A stretch of 64,000 nucleotides of DNA from Escherichia phage vB_EcoM-G157lw. This document shows, one piece after another, positions 856 to 62,685 of this stretch (position 1 is its first letter; every line of letters begins with the position of its first letter). The translations under genes and the position numbers were made by a program. The notes under the pieces were generated by a model, which did not search any database, was not told the origin of the DNA, and was given only the letters and a program-made list of their open reading frames with translations. Location: sequence record OK331996.1; one strand, written 5' to 3'.

Positions 856-2554
856 TTGTGTATTGACCGGATGAAATAGAACTCATAGATGCCATTTTTT
901 CTGTCCAATCACCACCAACGTCCCAATCAACTGTCCCAGCAACTTTCCAAGAAAGATTTCCATTTACTGTATTAGTCTGATTTCCTTCAACTAAAGTGGT
1001 AGCATCTCCTTTAACTGTAATGTCAGCATTACCTTCAACTACAATAGTAACATTACCTTTAACTAGGATAGTTCCATTACCTTCAACCGTCTTAGTTTCA
1101 TCGCCACGTACAAATATTGTATTGCTTCCATCTATTTGGTGAAGACGATTATCCATGTTGTAATAAATTTCTGATCCACCGACGTTAGTCTTTTTATCGC
1201 CGGCTACCAAAAAATTACCATCAGCGTTGGTTATATCATACAAATTATCAACAGTTTTTCTTGTTCTTCTCCCTGACGGTGATACTTCTTCATAAGTTCC
1301 AGTTGGATGAACTAATCTATATCGTTCTTGCCCAGGGGTATCATCAAATTCCTGAATATGTCCACTTTCAGTTTCCATTGTATGCACATACGGATATTCG
1401 CCTTTATATGAAGAAACTGGTTCTTTGAATAAAATTCTTGAGTCATTTGGAATAGGAGGGTCAGCTGGATCAGAAGACTTCGCCACAGTAGCAGCCATTG
1501 CCGACAAAGACCTAGCTGGTGTTTTAACTTCAATACCATATGATTCCAAATTTCCGGTAAGAATAATCATGGTAACACGGGATGCACGGCCTTTTGTTTG
1601 TTGATACCACAACGAATCACGACCAGCTTTATATGCTTTTTCCCAATCTCCTGCTAACATAGCAGTTAACATTGTGTTAAATTTAGCTACACCGCCAACA
1701 CCCATCTGAAATGCCATATTTTCTAATGCCATTTGACGAGAACGGTTGACAGCTTGCCAGACTGGTCCTACTTTAGAATGTGATTTAATGTCACGTTGCA
1801 TATCAGCTAAATCACGTTCAAATAAAGTTACCGCTTCTTCCATTGTAATAGAACCTGGATTTCCAGTAATTTCACGACCAACTTGTTTTGATAAAACTTT
1901 ATTAATTTGAGCCATATCACGAACTGGCTGTTTCATGATAAGATGACCAATACCAATTGTCGGATATCCTTCAGTATCCCAATAAACTTTTAGTCTTAAT
2001 CCTTCATCACGGCGAAGCATTTCAGCCATTGACATATTTGGATTATCATCAGTTGGAATCTCTGATAGTGGTCTATCATCGGGATTTATTGCGGTGTCTA
2101 AGTTACTATCTTGGATAACGTTAGAAGACGAATCATATCCTACTTCTCCGCCTTGGTTTAGTACGTTAGTATCATTTCCTAAACGTCTAGGATATTGTCC
2201 AGTTGGATCAGAAAATCCTTCAAGTCTATTCGGTTTTTCGCGAACTATTCCACCATACGTGCCAAGAACAATTCCGTTGGTTTTCCATTTGTCTAAAAAA
2301 TGACCATAAACTCTAGTTCCTTCTACCGGTCCAGTAACGGAGCCTCCAATTCCAGACATTGCTGCAGAAGTTATAGGTTGAATAACTGACATCCATGGTA
2401 ATTTTTCAGTTGGAATACCCATTACATCACCTTGTGCTCTTTGAGGTGGATGCAGACCAACAACACGAACACGAACACGACCTAATTTTAATGGGTCCAT
2501 TCTATCTTCAACAACACCAACAAACCAATTAAGGTTATTACTTATCATTTCCAT
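827..2554 (-). CDS. 5: baseplate central spike / tail-associated lysozyme gp5, 575 aa
   Basis: N-terminus MEMISNNLNWFVGVVED and lysozyme-like core (EMLRRDEGLRLKVYWDTEGYPTIGIGH) match T4 gp5; C-terminal beta-helix VxGxxT repeats. Confidence 0.95.
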   Translation of the reverse strand: MEMISNNLNWFVGVVEDRMDPLKLGRVRVRVVGLHPPQRAQGDVMGIPTEKLPWMSVIQPITSAAMSGIGGSVTGPVEGTRVYGHFLDKWKTNGIVLGTYGGIVREKPNRLEGFSDPTGQYPRRLGNDTNVLNQGGEVGYDSSSNVIQDSNLDTAINPDDRPLSEIPTDDNPNMSMAEMLRRDEGLRLKVYWDTEGYPTIGIGHLIMKQPVRDMAQINKVLSKQVGREITGNPGSITMEEAVTLFERDLADMQRDIKSHSKVGPVWQAVNRSRQMALENMAFQMGVGGVAKFNTMLTAMLAGDWEKAYKAGRDSLWYQQTKGRASRVTMIILTGNLESYGIEVKTPARSLSAMAATVAKSSDPADPPIPNDSRILFKEPVSSYKGEYPYVHTMETESGHIQEFDDTPGQERYRLVHPTGTYEEVSPSGRRTRKTVDNLYDITNADGNFLVAGDKKTNVGGSEIYYNMDNRLHQIDGSNTIFVRGDETKTVEGNGTILVKGNVTIVVEGNADITVKGDATTLVEGNQTNTVNGNLSWKVAGTVDWDVGGDWTEKMASMSSISSGQYTIDGSRIDIG

Positions 2555-3128
2555 AAGATTTCTCCATTATACGTATAAGGTCGTTCATAAATGAATTAAT
2601 GTCTGATTTTGCTATTATTTTTATTTGACGAAGTTTTTCATTTTCAAGAACAGCAGCTTCATACGTATTAACAGCAGCAAGCGCTCCTTCATATTGAGGA
2701 TATTTTTTAGCTTTATCGCCTTTATCATACCAAACATATGGATTATCATCGTATGATATTAAATTGTAAAATTTTTCACCGTTCTCATTCACATGATATA
2801 CTATTTGGTCTCCACCTACGTTTTTGTATTTTTGTATAGATGCTTGATAAGCAGCTTCTTGCGAAGTAATCCATCCATAATATGGATCATAATTATCATT
2901 ACACATCAATAAAACCCAATACAACTGTGGATTTCCATATATAGTATTTGCTAATTCTTCCGGGCGTGGTGAACCTTTGATATAATAAGTACGTAAGCGG
3001 TATCCCGCAAGAGCGCGTTTAAAATAGTCTTTATAGTTTCTAAAAATATCTGTCATAGGAATAGTCGGCGCGTTTTTATTCACCGTTTTGGCCGCATATT
3101 CAATCGGATCAAAAAATGTAAAGAGCAT
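2538..3128 (-). CDS. 53: baseplate wedge protein gp53, 196 aa
   Basis: Size and position (divergent from gene 4, overlapping gene 5 start); recalled T4 gp53. Confidence 0.85.
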   Translation of the reverse strand: MLFTFFDPIEYAAKTVNKNAPTIPMTDIFRNYKDYFKRALAGYRLRTYYIKGSPRPEELANTIYGNPQLYWVLLMCNDNYDPYYGWITSQEAAYQASIQKYKNVGGDQIVYHVNENGEKFYNLISYDDNPYVWYDKGDKAKKYPQYEGALAAVNTYEAAVLENEKLRQIKIIAKSDINSFMNDLIRIMEKSYGNDK

Positions 3129-17495: not shown

Positions 17496-17957
17496 ATGAC
17501 TATCAATACAGAAGTTTTTATCCGTCGAAATAAGCTTCGTCGTCACTTTGAGTCGGAGTTTCGTCAAATTAACAATGAGATTCGTGAGGCATCAAAAGCA
17601 GCAGGGGTCTCATCGTTTCATCTAAAATATTCTCAGCATCTTCTTGATCGTGCAATTCAACGGGAGATTGATGAGACATATGTTTTTGAATTATTCCATA
17701 AAATAAAAGATCATGTTTTAGAAGTTAATGAATTCCTGAGTATGCCTCCGCGTCCTGACATTGACGAGGATTTTATTGATGGGGTTGAATATCGTCCTGG
17801 ACGTTTAGAAATCACAGATGGAAATCTTTGGCTTGGATTTACAGTTTGTAAGCCTAATGAGAAGTTCAAAAACCCGTCACTTCAATGCAGGATGGCAATT
17901 ATCAACAGTCGTCGTTTACCAGGAAAGGCTTCTAAAGCAGTAATTAAAACTCAATGA
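17496..17957 (+). CDS. regB: RegB site-specific endoribonuclease, 153 aa
   Basis: MTINTEVFIRRNKLRRHFESEFRQINNEIREASK recalled as T4 RegB; same size. Confidence 0.85.
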   Translation: MTINTEVFIRRNKLRRHFESEFRQINNEIREASKAAGVSSFHLKYSQHLLDRAIQREIDETYVFELFHKIKDHVLEVNEFLSMPPRPDIDEDFIDGVEYRPGRLEITDGNLWLGFTVCKPNEKFKNPSLQCRMAIINSRRLPGKASKAVIKTQ

Positions 17958-59353: not shown

Positions 59354-59647
59354 ATGAAAAAATTTATTTTTGCTACAATTTTTACTTTGGCTTCTTGTGC
59401 TGCTCAGCCTGCTATGGCAGGATATGATAAAGACTTGTGTGAATGGTCTATGACTGCAGATCAGACTGAAGTTGAAACTCAAATTGAAGCGGATATTATG
59501 AATATTGTTGAGCGCGATCGTCCTAAAATGAAAGCTGAAGTGCAAAAACAACTTAAGTCTGGTGGTGTAATGCAGTATAATTATGTTCTGTATTGCGATA
59601 AAAACTTTAATAACAAAAATATCGTAACCGAAATCACAGGTGAATAA
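59354..59647 (+). CDS. sp: Spackle (61.3) periplasmic superinfection-exclusion protein, 97 aa
   Basis: Signal peptide MKKFIFATIFTLASCAAQPAMA; size and position match T4 sp. Confidence 0.7.
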   Translation: MKKFIFATIFTLASCAAQPAMAGYDKDLCEWSMTADQTEVETQIEADIMNIVERDRPKMKAEVQKQLKSGGVMQYNYVLYCDKNFNNKNIVTEITGE

Positions 59648-59648
59648 T

Positions 59649-60281
59649 ATGATTTATTATATGCACAAAAATCCACCGTTTAAATACGGTAAATTTCCTG
59701 ATGCACAATGTTATAATATAACGCCTGATGAAAATAACCGTGGATATCTTATTGACACAATTTTTGTAATTGTTAAAGATAACGAAATCGTTGCCTGGGC
59801 AGATTTTAAAGGTACAACACATGATGTTAATCCGGTGCCTTTCACATATTACAATATAATGGATTTGGCATATGATTATAATTGGTTTAATCATGACGCG
59901 TTGGCTCATATTGAAGGTGTAGGATTTGACATCTCTTATTCTAGCTACTCATTGTGTCCTATGAGTCGGGCTCATAAAGAACCTGAATATTTTTCATTTA
60001 GGAAACGTGTAAACTTTAAACGCAACACAGAGTATGTCGGTGGAATATTTGTTAAAGATAATCGAATTACTCGCATTATTTATCCTTTGGGCTGTGGTCA
60101 AAAAGATATTGATGTTGATTTAGACTTTACTGAAAACATCATTAATCATATTGCTTCTGTGTATTTTGATATTGATCACAAAATTGTAATATGTGGATAT
60201 GAATTACCATCAGAAAAACAGTCTAAAGTAAATGTTTCTATTGATGACCAAATTTTTAATGCTTTTATGAATAGAGGTTAA
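59649..60281 (+). CDS. hypothetical protein (61.2 position), 210 aa
   Basis: ATG 2 nt after the sp stop. Confidence 0.6.
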   Translation: MIYYMHKNPPFKYGKFPDAQCYNITPDENNRGYLIDTIFVIVKDNEIVAWADFKGTTHDVNPVPFTYYNIMDLAYDYNWFNHDALAHIEGVGFDISYSSYSLCPMSRAHKEPEYFSFRKRVNFKRNTEYVGGIFVKDNRITRIIYPLGCGQKDIDVDLDFTENIINHIASVYFDIDHKIVICGYELPSEKQSKVNVSIDDQIFNAFMNRG

Positions 60282-60282
60282 T

Positions 60283-60447
60283 ATGAAAACATATAAAGAA
60301 TTTATTAAAGAAGATATGGTAGCTGGAGATTCAGGTGGTAATCCTGAAAATATCTCTACTGGAACAACGTCAGGCGCTGTAGTAAATAAAGGTCCTGAAC
60401 AGATTCCTAAAAAGAAGAAAGAGGAATCTAAAGAAAAAGAAGAGTAA
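60283..60447 (+). CDS. small protein (61.1 position), 54 aa, CTS-like N-terminus
   Basis: MKTYKEFIKE...; TAATATG coupling upstream, ends 2 nt before gene 61. Confidence 0.45.
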   Translation: MKTYKEFIKEDMVAGDSGGNPENISTGTTSGAVVNKGPEQIPKKKKEESKEKEE

Positions 60448-60449
60448 AA

Positions 60450-61478
60450 ATGTCATCAATACCTTGGATTGATAATGAGTTTGCGTATCGTGCATTAGCT
60501 CATTTACCTAAATTCACACAAGTAAATAATAGTTCAACTTTTAAATTGCGGTTTAGATGCCCTGTTTGTGGAGATTCAAAAACCGATCAGAATAAAGCTC
60601 GTGGATGGTATTATGGTGATAATAATGAAGGAAATATTCATTGTTATAACTGTAACTATCATGCACCAATCGGAATATATTTAAAGGAGTTTGAACCCGA
60701 TTTATATCGTGAGTATATCTTTGAAATAAGAAAAGAAAAAGGTAAAAGTCGTCCAGTAGAAAAACCTAAAGAACTTCCTAAACAACCTGAGAAGAAAATA
60801 ATTAAATCTCTTCCGTCGTGTGTTAGATTAGATAAACTGGCGGAAGACCATCCAATTATAAAATATGTAAAAGCTCGTTGTATTCCAAAGGATAAATGGA
60901 AATATCTTTGGTTTACAACCGAATGGCCTAAATTAGTTAATAGCATAGCACCGGGAACATACAAAAAGGAAATTTCTGAGCCTCGTCTTGTTATTCCAAT
61001 TTATAATGCTAATGGAAAAGCTGAGTCTTTTCAAGGACGTGCATTAAAGAAAGATGCTCCTCAAAAATATATCACCATTAAAGCTTATCCTGAGGCAACA
61101 AAAATATATGGAGTCGAACGAGTTAAAGATGGCGATGTATATGTTCTAGAAGGACCTATAGATTCACTTTTTATTGAAAATGGTATAGCTATTACGGGTG
61201 GTCAATTAGACCTAGAAGTTGTTCCATTTAAAGATAGGCGTGTGTGGGTCTTAGATAATGAACCTCGTCATCCTGACACTATTAAGCGAATGACTAAATT
61301 AGTTGATGCAGGAGAAAGGGTTATGTTTTGGGATAAATCTCCCTGGAAATCAAAAGATGTTAATGATATGATTAGAAAGGAAGGTGCAACCCCTGAACAA
61401 ATTATGGAATATATGAAAAATAATATTGCCCAGGGGTTGATGGCTAAAATGCGGCTATCTAAATATGCTAAGATTTAA
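60450..61478 (+). CDS. 61: DNA primase gp61, 342 aa
   Basis: Zn-ribbon CPVCGDS...CYNC plus TOPRIM-like region; size matches T4 gp61. Confidence 0.9.
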   Translation: MSSIPWIDNEFAYRALAHLPKFTQVNNSSTFKLRFRCPVCGDSKTDQNKARGWYYGDNNEGNIHCYNCNYHAPIGIYLKEFEPDLYREYIFEIRKEKGKSRPVEKPKELPKQPEKKIIKSLPSCVRLDKLAEDHPIIKYVKARCIPKDKWKYLWFTTEWPKLVNSIAPGTYKKEISEPRLVIPIYNANGKAESFQGRALKKDAPQKYITIKAYPEATKIYGVERVKDGDVYVLEGPIDSLFIENGIAITGGQLDLEVVPFKDRRVWVLDNEPRHPDTIKRMTKLVDAGERVMFWDKSPWKSKDVNDMIRKEGATPEQIMEYMKNNIAQGLMAKMRLSKYAKI

Positions 61479-61675
61479 ATTAACCCAACTAAAGCAAATG
61501 CTAAATCTACAAATGTATCAAGAGTAACTACTGGAATATTAATACCATGCGCAATTGCAACAGGTGATAGAATAAAGTTCCAGAGTAAAATTCCTACCAT
61601 AGCAGAAATAGTAAAAGCTATACGTTTTTTATTACCTTTTATGGCATTAACAAGTGCCATTAATTTTTGTACCAT
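61475..61675 (-). CDS. small hydrophobic protein on the opposite strand, 66 aa
   Basis: Strong SD AAGGAGG 5 nt upstream of ATG on minus strand; two hydrophobic segments; convergent with gene 61. Confidence 0.5.
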   Translation of the reverse strand: MVQKLMALVNAIKGNKKRIAFTISAMVGILLWNFILSPVAIAHGINIPVVTLDTFVDLAFALVGLI

Positions 61676-61748
61676 ATGTCCTCCTTATTGCTTTATATAT
61701 TTATTGTATAATTAATCTACTAATCCATGAATTGAAAGGAAAAATAAC

Positions 61749-62267
61749 ATGCCACATTTCAACGAATGTAGTCAACTGATCGAAGGCGCTGATAAAGCTC
61801 AAAATGAATATTGGGATATTCTCGGTGATGAAAAAGACCCGCTGCAGGTAATGCTTGACATGCAGAAATCTCTGCAAATTCGTTTAGCTAAAGATAAACC
61901 TGAATATAATCGTCATCCTGATGACTTGGCTACTGCCGGTGAAGTTGTTGATTGGTTGCGTAATCAGAAAGATTATATTGACGATGAATTCCGTGAACTT
62001 CTGACTTCTCTTGGTGGTATGAGTAATGGTGAAAAAGACGCATCTGCTGTATGGAAACCTTGGAAGTCGCAGCATGGTGAACGTCGTGAAACTCTGATTA
62101 CTGATTTGTCTCCACAAGACCAACTGGAAATTAAATTTGAAATGATTGATATTCTCCATTTCGTTCTGAATATGTTCCAAGGTCTTGGTCTTACAGCAGA
62201 AGAAATCTTTAAACTTTATTATCTGAAAAATGCCGAGAACTTTGCTCGTCAGGACCGAGGTTATTAA
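61749..62267 (+). CDS. 56: dCTP pyrophosphatase gp56, 172 aa
   Basis: HFNEC..LIEG.DKAQNEYWDILGDEKDPLQVMLDMQ matches recalled T4 gp56. Confidence 0.85.
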   Translation: MPHFNECSQLIEGADKAQNEYWDILGDEKDPLQVMLDMQKSLQIRLAKDKPEYNRHPDDLATAGEVVDWLRNQKDYIDDEFRELLTSLGGMSNGEKDASAVWKPWKSQHGERRETLITDLSPQDQLEIKFEMIDILHFVLNMFQGLGLTAEEIFKLYYLKNAENFARQDRGY

Positions 62268-62409
62268 TGTCTCGTTTAAATAAACGTCAACTCAAAAAGT
62301 TGAATAAGAAAAGGGCGAAGGCCCTTACTGCTTTATTACGTAATGAAATAACTAAAGAAATAGACCAAGAGATTATTGAACAACTCTGGAAAGCCGCTAA
62401 ATTGTAAGT

Positions 62410-62417
62410 TATAAATA
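62410..62417 (+). promoter_or_regulatory. T4-type late promoter TATAAATA for soc
   Basis: Exact TATAAATA about 30 nt upstream of soc. Confidence 0.6.
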
Positions 62418-62448: not shown

Positions 62449-62685
62449 ATGGGTGGTTTCGTTAACATCAAGACCTTTACTCATCCAGCAGGTGAAGGCA
62501 AAGAAGTTAAAGGTATGGAAGTTTCTGTTCCGTTTGAAATCTATTCTAACGAGCATCGTATTGCAGATTCTCATTATCAGACCTTTCCTTCTGAAAAGGC
62601 GGCATATTCTACTGTAGTTTCTGATGCAGCTGACTGGAAAACTAAGAATGCTGCGATGTTTACGCCCACAGAAATAGGTGGTTAA
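62449..62685 (+). CDS. soc: small outer capsid protein Soc, 78 aa
   Basis: Central HYQTFPSEKAAYSTV block matches T4 Soc. Confidence 0.8.
   Translation: MGGFVNIKTFTHPAGEGKEVKGMEVSVPFEIYSNEHRIADSHYQTFPSEKAAYSTVVSDAADWKTKNAAMFTPTEIGG

Follow-up and report, generated by a model that had tools for sequence, protein, structure and literature searches.

The 66-aa open reading frame (ORF) lying on the minus strand between genes 61 and 56 is a real gene, which is conserved in the T-even phages of enterobacteria and is under purifying selection. We propose, at a probability of roughly 0.75 for the reading as a whole, that it encodes a small inner-membrane protein made late in infection and binding another protein of the envelope. 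The window, i.e. the whole stretch of 64,000 nucleotides (64 kb) that was analysed, comes from a Tequatrovirus and shares 99.8% identity with Shigella phage Sf23. Databases already contain the gene as a member of an uncharacterised family, PHROG 2024, on which residues 2-66 of the product align with profile positions 1-65 of 65 (hmmscan, E=1.4e-31). RB69ORF029w (NP_861719.1), RB32ORF030w, ar1_033 of AR1 and g032 of fPS-90 belong to the same family, occupy the same locus and are likewise convergent with the primase gene. The window protein does not differ in kind from these members of PHROG 2024, which are called 'hypothetical protein', and GenBank already contains 100% identical sequences, also named hypothetical proteins. 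The label 'putative head morphogenesis protein' in the T6 RefSeq record was rejected as a faulty transfer; the notes of the same record call the dCTPase 'ferredoxin'.

Table 1. Features of the locus, with positions in the window and strand.
Feature	Position	Strand	Basis or remark
CDS of the 66-aa small membrane protein (predicted)	61475..61675, stop included	-	ORF list, sequence; PHROG 2024, RB69ORF029w ortholog
Gene 61, DNA primase	60450..61478	+	convergent with the ORF
Gene 56, dCTPase/dUTPase	61749..62267	+	divergent with the ORF
Early-sense intrinsic-terminator-like hairpin, ATGGCATTAACAAGTGCCAT plus T-run	61641..61670	+	terminator scan; within ORF codons 6-12
Middle-promoter-like site for gene 56	61689..61712	+	presumed MotA box TGCTTTA 61689-61695, 11-nt spacer, TATAAT 61707-61712
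Late-promoter-like motif, AATAAATA	61698..61705	-	22 nt before the ATG; T4 consensus TATAAATA at -13..-6
Shine-Dalgarno AAGGAGG	61680..61686	-	followed by ACAT, then ATG at 61675-61673; spacing 4 nt
Confident transmembrane helix (predicted), codons 19-42	61550..61621	-	hydropathy, AF2, TMHMM; W32-N33 and P38 invariant
Short acidic amphipathic C-terminal helix (predicted), codons 52-63	61487..61522	-	AF2; predicted periplasmic

A conserved gene convergent with the primase gene

The ORF starts with ATG and encodes MVQKLMALVNAIKGNKKRIAFTISAMVGILLWNFILSPVAIAHGINIPVVTLDTFVDLAFALVGLI. Its stop (61475-61477) overlaps that of gene 61 (61476-61478) inside a TTAA, and both the frame and the overlap, which the initial annotation had reported, are confirmed in the sequence. 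It is housed in the 270-nt gap between genes 61 and 56, inside no other gene, so that the earlier description of an ORF lying outside its neighbours, with translation signals of its own, holds for the position as well as for the Shine-Dalgarno (SD) sequence. In T4 and fPS-90, a dam or homing-endonuclease insert parts the ORF from gene 56; the copy in the window has no such insert. Spackle (Sp; 59354-59647) and homologs of T4 61.1 and 61.2 are found in the same neighbourhood. The length of the ORF is not significant by itself, since the AT-rich window contains many longer antisense ORFs; it is placed beyond chance by its SD, by its location between genes and by its conservation.

The ORF was recovered by tblastn in 696 phage records (686 at a coverage of at least 80%), always beside the primase gene and convergent with it, and in 945 records when the Kanagawavirus homolog served as the query. 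The look at other T-even genomes for the ORF and its SD, which the initial annotation had suggested as a check, has therefore a clearly positive outcome, the SD being present in all genera examined. The 120 protein clusters (41-74 aa) yielded by a profile search all belong to T4-like phages that infect enterobacteria, and five near-identical loci were returned by a search for related loci in IMG/VR; the length of the product is conserved at 56-74 aa. The synteny, between genes 56 and 61 and convergent with the latter, is the same in T4, fPS-90, PhAPEC2, F2 and RB69, and also in Q7622, IME540, pKp20 and OE5505, while the ORF and gene 61 do not overlap in Jiaodavirus. Within Tequatrovirus, the Nei-Gojobori dN/dS ranges from 0.09 to 0.4, most values being 0.1-0.2; in comparisons across genera, dS is saturated, with dN about 0.4 and a protein identity of 50-55%. 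The reading frame, the length, the start and the SD are kept across genera at protein identities of 24-55%, and an in-frame deletion of three codons is tolerated in the homolog of phage OE5505. Gaprivervirus possesses two diverged tandem paralogs, a case of duplication and decay. The identity to RB69 is 54% for the ORF product compared with 73-90% for gp61, gp56 and Soc, and truncated variants of the family exist; given this faster evolution and these variants, the gene is probably dispensable in the laboratory.

These data bear directly on the proposal that the ORF is no gene at all and arose by chance in a conserved 3' untranslated/terminator region of gene 61, an idea to which we attach a negligible probability. 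Chance antisense ORFs of 60-100 aa are indeed numerous in the window, and the T4 RefSeq record (NC_000866) lacks an annotation of the ORF, though T4 carries it at 17738-17938 of the + strand. However, a chance frame is at odds with the way in which frame, length, start and SD have been retained despite saturation at synonymous sites, with the invariance of W-N, P and G, with the tandem paralogs of Gaprivervirus and with an SD-ATG arrangement that is unique in the window; the dN/dS values and the invariant residues effectively refute a non-coding reading. The result is chiefly one of annotation clean-up, for a gene that some 700-950 of the sequenced T4-like phages carry, T4, T2 and T6 among them. 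The genome-wide CRISPRi-ART library of T4 targeted annotated CDSs only, and for that reason it probably skipped this ORF, as any other screen confined to annotated genes probably would.

Putative signals for late expression and overlapping transcription

The combination AAGGAGG-N4-ATG occurs once on the two strands of the window, against 0.13 occurrences expected from shuffles, and an ATG with a GGAG-type SD is kept in every genus examined. The strong AAGGAGG noticed in the initial annotation is present and unique in the window, although its spacing to the ATG is shorter by one nucleotide than the 5 nt given there. A putative transcription start near 61692, deduced from the promoter motif discussed below, would leave a leader of about 17 nt. 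The sequence indicates that a very strong SD on a short leader would drive the translation of the ORF.

The motif NATAAATA is found 12-22 nt 5' of the start codon in six genera (the loci examined were those of Tequatro-, Mosig-, Gapriver-, Kanagawa-, Dhaka- and Jiaodavirus), in flanks that have otherwise diverged. By comparison, ATAAATA is counted 16 times in the 128 kb formed by the two strands of the window, i.e. about 1.25e-4 per position. An A at -13 is the commonest natural variant of the T4 late promoter, with 9 of the 50 listed (PMC2988020), and position -13 is poorly conserved among T4-like phages (PMC1524935); at this motif, it is G in T4 itself and C in Gaprivervirus, both of which depart from the consensus in a less common way. 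For the RB69 homolog, Nolan et al. 2006 appear to list no late promoter, the coordinates near 16.03 kb occurring in their supplement only in the early-promoter, middle-promoter and terminator lists, with supplementary file 4 taken by assumption as the late-promoter list. On the ORF strand, no sigma-70-type promoter was found within 61300-61900. The mark of a T4 late gene, a TATAAATA-type promoter shortly upstream, is present in the sequence, and we infer that the ORF would be transcribed late from its own gp55-type promoter.

T4 late transcripts may have either polarity (PMC2988020). Because of this and of the conserved late-type motif, the opposite strand would be the normal polarity of a late gene placed in an early cluster. 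The ORF had first been regarded as unusual for an early region, an impression that disappears once the late-promoter-like motif upstream is taken into account, and the late-gene reading accounts for the 'antisense' gene in the early cluster. A comparable arrangement is that of soc (62449-62685), a gene with a late promoter (TATAAATA at 62410) that is surrounded by early and middle genes and lies less than 1 kb from the ORF (~800 bp). However, soc is located on the early-gene strand and its product, a soluble protein, decorates the capsid, whereas the ORF is on the opposite strand and is predicted to encode a membrane protein.

Further signals are carried by the plus strand. The terminator-like hairpin is likely to be the 3' end of gene 61 transcripts and, owing to its position within codons 6-12, the 3' UTR of gene 61 (~190 nt) would cover the ORF in antisense over nearly its full length. 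The annotation of Yersinia phage fPS-90 also has a terminator at this place. As a cross-genus feature, the embedded early-sense terminator was not borne out, being clear in Tequatrovirus only and weak in Mosigvirus. In the sense of the ORF, a stricter scan detected no terminator downstream inside gene 61, and a relaxed scan gave a single weak candidate, located some 85 nt beyond the stop, with a 5-bp stem and two G-C pairs. In front of gene 56, we take TGCTTTA to be a MotA box on the basis of its consensus, and the late-promoter-like motif of the minus strand sits in the spacer of this middle-promoter-like site of the plus strand. A predicted middle promoter is annotated at the homologous place in fPS-90, and Pm:16038 lies there in RB69 (PMC1524935 supplement).

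From such overlaps, it can be hypothesised that the main function is exerted at the RNA level, by a sense/antisense switch resembling a type I toxin-antitoxin system, in which the peptide would be secondary and which would shut off the primase mRNA late and/or keep the small protein off early. Late transcripts of the ORF would in this case continue antisense into gene 61. This would be in line with gene 61 transcripts running antisense to about 190 nt of the ORF, with the outcome of the two scans for an ORF-sense terminator and with the overlap of late and middle promoter motifs at 61689-61712; moreover, several sites of T4 are known to be transcribed on both strands, though not at the same time (PMC2988020). 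We nevertheless hold such a main function to be very improbable: the amino-acid sequence is under purifying selection in frame despite saturated synonymous sites, which argues that the peptide itself is functional, and neither the embedded terminator, clear in Tequatrovirus only, nor the overlap of the two genes, lacking in Jiaodavirus, is general. In hok/sok and tisB/istR, the gene of a small hydrophobic peptide is fully overlapped by an antisense transcript, and the ORF would resemble them in being overlapped by the presumed 3' UTR of gene 61, with ends deduced from the terminator. Unlike these systems, the antisense partner of the ORF would be the tail of an mRNA and not a dedicated sRNA, and the arrangement is not conserved beyond Tequatrovirus. 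An RNA-level layer could be additional to the protein, without being the whole explanation.

Predicted architecture of the product

The product (about 7 kDa) is predicted to be a small protein of the inner membrane with an N-in/C-out topology, because it combines a basic N-terminus, one confident transmembrane (TM) helix and an acidic C-terminal helix. The AF2 model (mean pLDDT 75.8) contains helices at residues 2-11, 16-42 (pLDDT 84-87) and 52-63, and a single TM segment at 21-41 was noted in 2006 by TMHMM in RB69ORF029w (PMC1524935 supplement). The initial proposal of a small membrane protein is supported by hydropathy, by AF2 and by TMHMM on the RB69 homolog. The two hydrophobic segments that it mentioned are valid as a description, but a length sufficient for crossing the membrane is reached only by the first (residues ~19-42); the second consists of the 18 C-terminal residues, includes two Asp and is modelled as a 12-residue helix. 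In the family alignment W32, N33, P38 and G44 are invariant, the conserved G44 and P48 precede the C-terminal helix, and position 53 is acidic in nearly all members. The distribution of K/R is the same in all 27 diverse members, with 3-6 of them on the N-terminal side of the helix and 0-2 on the C-terminal side, and one subfamily (subtype B) has an additional Asp inside the TM helix.

Comparisons with databases lead back to the family itself. No Pfam match was obtained for the window protein (E<=10) or for the 27 members (E<=1), nor any NCBIfam match for the window protein, and a PDB profile search together with Foldseek against PDB and BFVD gave nothing outside the family. Against 1.84 billion representatives, phmmer returned family members only, apart from spurious repeats; the long repetitive proteins P0032, P0036 and P0037 that it scored were dismissed, their scores being sums of weak repeats.

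A holin-like factor was among the roles first suggested, and a holin- or pinholin-like permeabiliser, or a membrane toxin in general, would share with the product its small size, its hydrophobicity, the W-N (D in subtype B) within the TM helix and the predicted late expression. In addition, UniProt entry A0A482MZV5, the OE5505 homolog, is named 'Holin'. This is, however, one automatic name, NCBI giving 'hypothetical protein' for that and every other named member listed; the holin families of Pfam and NCBIfam match none of the 27 members, and structural matches are confined to the family. Charged residues are clustered at the N-terminus, and the C-terminal end is hydrophobic (...FALVGLI, no K/R), the reverse of typical holins, which have a charged C-terminal tail. 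Class II holins or pinholins, such as S68 of phage 21, have two spanning helices, a charged C-terminal tail and a place in a lysis cassette. The ORF product is like them in its length of ~65-70 aa, its hydrophobic character, its phage origin and its presumably late synthesis, but differs by its single spanning helix, its charged N-terminus and the lack of a sequence or fold match, and its gene lies among replication genes, primase and dCTPase, with neither endolysin nor spanin beside it. T-even phages, moreover, already possess the holin T, and we judge a permeabilising function to be very unlikely.

The architecture resembles that of MgrB, AcrZ, SafA and the T4 antiholin RI, which are single-pass small proteins binding a larger membrane protein; the likeness is one of architecture alone, without homology. 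A polar Asn in a TM helix is a classic determinant of helix-helix association.

Proposed role at the envelope

We propose the following course for the late-made membrane protein. The gp55-type late promoter AATAAATA would produce a late transcript running against the direction of the early and middle genes around it, and the strong SD on its short leader would ensure translation of the ORF. The protein may then be inserted into the membrane with its basic N-terminus in the cytoplasm and one TM helix bearing the invariant Trp-Asn, while a short Gly/Pro turn and the acidic amphipathic helix would lie on the periplasmic side. The polar face of the TM helix would serve for the binding of another membrane protein or of the protein itself, as is usual for small proteins of this kind, an enzymatic role not being expected. 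With a product apparently synthesised late, the process affected is most likely to concern the envelope in the last stage of infection: the timing of lysis, lysis inhibition or membrane integrity. This link to lysis and the envelope is suggested by timing and location, and no lysis gene adjoins the ORF. In the literature, no study of the ORF and no transcript, protein or phenotype data for it were found.

Another conceivable role is superinfection exclusion or immunity, or an anti-defence action against a membrane-bound abortive-infection effector of the host. The presence of spackle and of the 61.1 and 61.2 homologs nearby could be read in this way, and the restriction to phages of enterobacteria, the fast evolution and the duplication and decay in Gaprivervirus form a pattern typical of host-interaction genes. 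Imm and Sp, the exclusion proteins known from T4, are expressed early. For the ORF, the sequence does not point to such early expression in early-gene orientation: its polarity is opposite to the early cluster and its promoter motif is of the late type. The absence of any Pfam match speaks against homology to Imm or Sp, and Sp is a separate gene in the window. Nothing ties the ORF to these two proteins, so the exclusion function advanced in the initial annotation loses ground, and we consider this group of roles quite unlikely.

Should the late-made membrane protein indeed have lysis control or host membrane defences as its target, a textbook system would gain a component; otherwise, the protein would be one more accessory small protein. 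A stronger version of the former, in which the ORF is an overlooked late gene of T4, whose product takes a so far missing part in one of the classic membrane processes of T-even phages and whose expression is coupled to the shut-off of primase mRNA, seems unlikely, with a small though appreciable chance of being right. The processes that come into question under this version are lysis timing or inhibition, membrane-bound prohead initiation and late protection against host membrane defences, and the coupling would operate through the overlap of the middle promoter with the late one and through convergent transcription.

Conservation of the opposite-strand gene between primase and dCTPase

The window is a segment of a Tequatrovirus genome in the orientation of early transcription; over the 601 bases surrounding the small ORF it shares 99.8% identity with Shigella phage Sf23 and 96-99% with several hundred T4-like phages. 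The initial annotation had placed this 66-codon frame exactly where we find it, and its stop indeed overlaps that of gene 61, the two sharing TTAA. The strong Shine-Dalgarno (SD) sequence AAGGAGG is likewise present, at 4 nt from the ATG and not at the 5 nt first given. The length of the ORF is by itself uninformative, because longer antisense ORFs within genes are numerous in this AT-rich window. The combination AAGGAGG-N4-ATG occurs once in 128 kb (the window, both strands), against 0.13 expected. A tblastn search with the window protein returned 696 phage records, 686 of them with at least 80% coverage and the primase gene adjoining in all, and a search from the most distant match (Kanagawavirus) extended this to 945 records, from T4-like phages of Klebsiella, Enterobacter, Salmonella, Citrobacter, Raoultella and Yersinia. 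From 5.8 billion proteins, profile searching retrieved 120 clusters of 41-74 aa, exclusively from T4-like phages of enterobacteria. The comparison with other T-even genomes that had been proposed bears the gene out: loci from six genera (Tequatro-, Mosig-, Gapriver-, Kanagawa-, Dhaka- and Jiaodavirus) each keep the frame, the length, an ATG start and an SD of the GGAG type. According to Nei-Gojobori estimates, dN/dS is mostly ~0.1-0.2 within Tequatrovirus; between genera dN is ~0.4, synonymous sites are saturated and protein identity is 50-55%. Across 27 diverse members W32, N33, P38 and G44 never vary and P48 and A40 hardly do; position 53 carries an acidic residue in almost all. The small ORF is thus almost certainly a real gene; the non-coding reading, whose chance is negligible, is rejected because of this conservation, the dN/dS values and the invariant residues.

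The protein has changed faster than the products of neighbouring genes: identity to RB69 is 54%, against 73-90% for gp61, gp56 and Soc, and to Kanagawa- and Jiaodavirus 24-30%, against 61-78%. Two subtypes can be distinguished, A (T4, Mosigvirus, first Gaprivervirus copy) and B (Kanagawa- and Dhakavirus, many Klebsiella phages, second Gaprivervirus copy). The Gapriverviruses TH15 and TH41 carry A then B as diverged tandem paralogs, the B start lying 8 nt past the A stop with its own SD, and TH57 lacks the 5' half of copy B, of which only a startless remnant persists. Shortened versions also occur in some contigs, and only enterobacterial phages carry the family. Such behaviour is consistent with an accessory protein interacting with the host or the envelope, rather than a core replication or morphogenesis protein.

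Features of the locus in the window and in related phages (L numbers denote locus extracts with their own coordinates)
Feature	Position	Strand	Detail
spackle	59354-59647	+	
61.2	59640-60281	+	
61.1	60283-60447	+	
primase gene 61	60450-61478	+	
small ORF	61475-61675	-	ATG start, 66 aa
terminator-like hairpin and T-run	61641-61670	+	intrinsic type; codons 6-12 of small ORF; annotated terminator in fPS-90
predicted middle-type promoter of gene 56	61689-61712	+	MotA box TGCTTTA 61689-61695, 11 nt, TATAAT 61707-61712; read from sequence
upstream motif, window	61705-61698	-	AATAAATA, 22 nt to ATG
upstream motif, T4			GATAAATA, 21 nt to ATG
upstream motif, Mosigvirus			AATAAATA, 22 nt to ATG
upstream motif, Gaprivervirus			CATAAATA, 16 nt to ATG
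upstream motif, Kanagawavirus			TATAAATA, 20 nt to ATG
upstream motif, Dhakavirus			AATAAATA, 21 nt to ATG
upstream motif, Jiaodavirus			CATAAATA, 12 nt to ATG; GATAAATA farther upstream
slot, window	61676-61748		empty
slot, T4	L003 1787-2738		dam
slot, OE5505	L015 1-1500		dam and 186-aa ORF
slot, fPS-90 and G50-like phages	L001 (fPS-90) 1877-2598		homing endonuclease
dCTPase gene 56	61749-62267	+	
46-aa ORF	62267-62407	+	between gene 56 and soc
late-promoter motif of soc	62410		TATAAATA
soc	62449-62685	+	
small ORF, T4	NC_000866 17738-17938 (L003 2739-2939)	+ (NC_000866)	97% identity
small ORF, OE5505	L015 1501-1692		
small ORF, T6 (NC_054907)	L016 1177-1362		
tandem copies, TH15 and TH41	L014 and L013 1501-1898		
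copy B remnant, TH57	L006 ~1700-1800		
helix 1	residues 2-11		AlphaFold2
helix 2	residues 16-42		AlphaFold2, pLDDT 84-87
helix 3	residues 52-63		AlphaFold2, 12 residues

Late-promoter-like motif and overlapping predicted transcription signals

The initial annotation regarded the opposite strand as an oddity of an early region, a view that finds no support. All lineages examined have a NATAAATA motif ahead of the ATG, within intergenic flanks that have otherwise diverged or, in places, been swapped for insertions. ATAAATA occurs only 16 times on both strands of the window (128 kb), so that a chance match in a 30-nt stretch would amount to ~0.4% per lineage. The T4 late promoter is TATAAATA at -13 to -6, 50 listed examples comprising 32 perfect and nine with A at -13, and either polarity is possible for T4 late transcripts (Geiduschek and Kassavetis 2010, PMC2988020). 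The -13 position is poorly conserved among T4 relatives (PMC1524935); the G of T4 and the C of Gaprivervirus are rarer deviations from the consensus. We propose, with a probability of about 0.7, that the small ORF is a late gene with its own putative gp55-type promoter, in which case its "wrong" orientation would be ordinary T4 late-gene polarity. The T4 late gene soc, 800 bp off, is also late within the same early cluster. The RB69 homolog apparently has no listed late promoter, in so far as a search for coordinates near 16.03 kb gave no match in a supplementary file assumed to be the late-promoter list of Nolan et al. As a side observation, base-composition arithmetic alone (35% GC) predicts ~24 ATAAATA per strand, against the 16 on both strands; if real, such a shortfall would point to stray late promoters being selected against.

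The minus-strand AATAAATA falls in the spacer of the predicted plus-strand middle-type promoter of gene 56, whose equivalent is annotated in fPS-90 and predicted in RB69 as Pm:16038. As read from the sequence, the predicted divergent middle and late promoters overlap physically within 24 bp, and simultaneous binding would be impossible. The hairpin inside the small ORF would leave gene 61 transcripts with a ~190-nt 3' UTR antisense to nearly the whole ORF. Downstream within gene 61, a stricter scan found no ORF-sense terminator and a relaxed scan one weak candidate, ~85 nt beyond the ORF stop; in the absence of a strong one, late transcripts should continue antisense into the primase gene. Such a layout permits late primase shut-off and early silencing of the small ORF, but the embedded terminator is clear in Tequatrovirus only and the two genes do not overlap in Jiaodavirus. 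A mainly RNA-level antisense role, at best an additional function, is very unlikely, and RNA-level coupling is possible as an extra layer, not as the core function.

Predicted membrane topology and possible role

AlphaFold2, with a 27-sequence alignment, predicts three helices (mean pLDDT 75.8), of which the third does not have the length to cross a bilayer. The C-terminal part of the subtype B and Jiaodavirus proteins is clearly amphipathic, not hydrophobic. In all 27 members 3-6 Lys/Arg precede the long helix and 0-2 follow it, and nearly all have at least one acidic residue after it. It is very probable that the gene encodes a small inner-membrane protein. By the positive-inside rule, the predicted topology is single-pass, with a cytoplasmic N-terminus and a ~25-residue C-terminal tail that is periplasmic or lies at the outer leaflet; for subtype A a helical hairpin is conceivable. 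Phage OE5505 has a natural in-frame deletion of 9 nt that costs the transmembrane helix three residues (AMV); the hydrophobic segment then measures 21 residues instead of 24, and the gene is intact in other respects.

A polar face is formed by the invariant Trp-Asn in the helix's outer half, to which subtype B adds an Asp four residues earlier. Polar faces of this kind drive helix-helix association in other systems. We hypothesise, at even odds, that this face may let the protein bind a membrane partner or another copy of itself, and that it acts in this way; that the process affected, as infection ends, would be the timing or inhibition of lysis or the integrity of the envelope is a tentative and less probable suggestion. 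The holin or toxin initially envisaged is very unlikely, as every testable defining holin feature is absent: family match, charged C-terminus and lysis-cassette context. Searches of Pfam, NCBIfam and PDB and with Foldseek returned no resembling family, solved structure or predicted viral structure beyond its own family. The evolutionary pattern favours a role in exclusion or anti-defence, but the late promoter weighs against an Imm/Sp-like early role, which leaves this option quite unlikely. It is also unlikely that the gene encodes a so far overlooked late membrane factor of T-even phages that serves lysis control or defence evasion and is coupled to primase shut-off.

Annotation record and variable neighbours

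The small ORF belongs to a family already on record but uncharacterised, PHROG 2024 (unknown function, E=1.4e-31). Sequences identical to the window protein stand in GenBank under many accessions, and it is a "hypothetical protein" in Sf23, AR1 (ar1_033), fPS-90 (g032), RB32/RB51 (ORF030w) and RB69 (ORF029w). RB69ORF029w was listed among novel ORFs, with one transmembrane segment predicted at residues 21-41 (Nolan et al. 2006, PMC1524935). Our literature search found no study of it. Neither T4 record, NC_000866 (RefSeq) or KJ477684 (T4 "wild"), annotates the T4 copy, which sits in a 309-nt gap between dam and gene 61 (NC_000866 17626-17934) shown as empty; only annotated CDSs were targets of a genome-wide T4 CRISPRi-ART library (PMC11879866). 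The present work contributes the late-promoter account of the orientation, the single-pass topology with its invariant W-N motif, the two subtypes with the Gaprivervirus tandem pair, the overlapping middle and late promoters, and the T4 reference omission.

The T6 RefSeq record names both the small ORF and 61.1 "putative head morphogenesis protein", an unreliable transfer, since its notes also compare dCTPase with "ferredoxin" and small ORFs with terminase subunits. The apparent 61-aa database homolog P0034 looks like the product of a C-to-T-converted gene for the T4-type protein (Ala to Val, Pro to Leu and Ser to Phe throughout) and probably derives from bisulfite-treated or otherwise deaminated reads with T4-like spike-in DNA.

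Cargo in the slot between the small ORF and gene 56 varies across the phages compared. On the other side of gene 56, a very basic 46-aa ORF (MSRLNKRQLKKLNKKRAK...) begins on the final base of the stop codon of gene 56 and occupies the gap up to soc, where T4 has segF; it matches PHROG 14392 (unknown function, E=5e-25).
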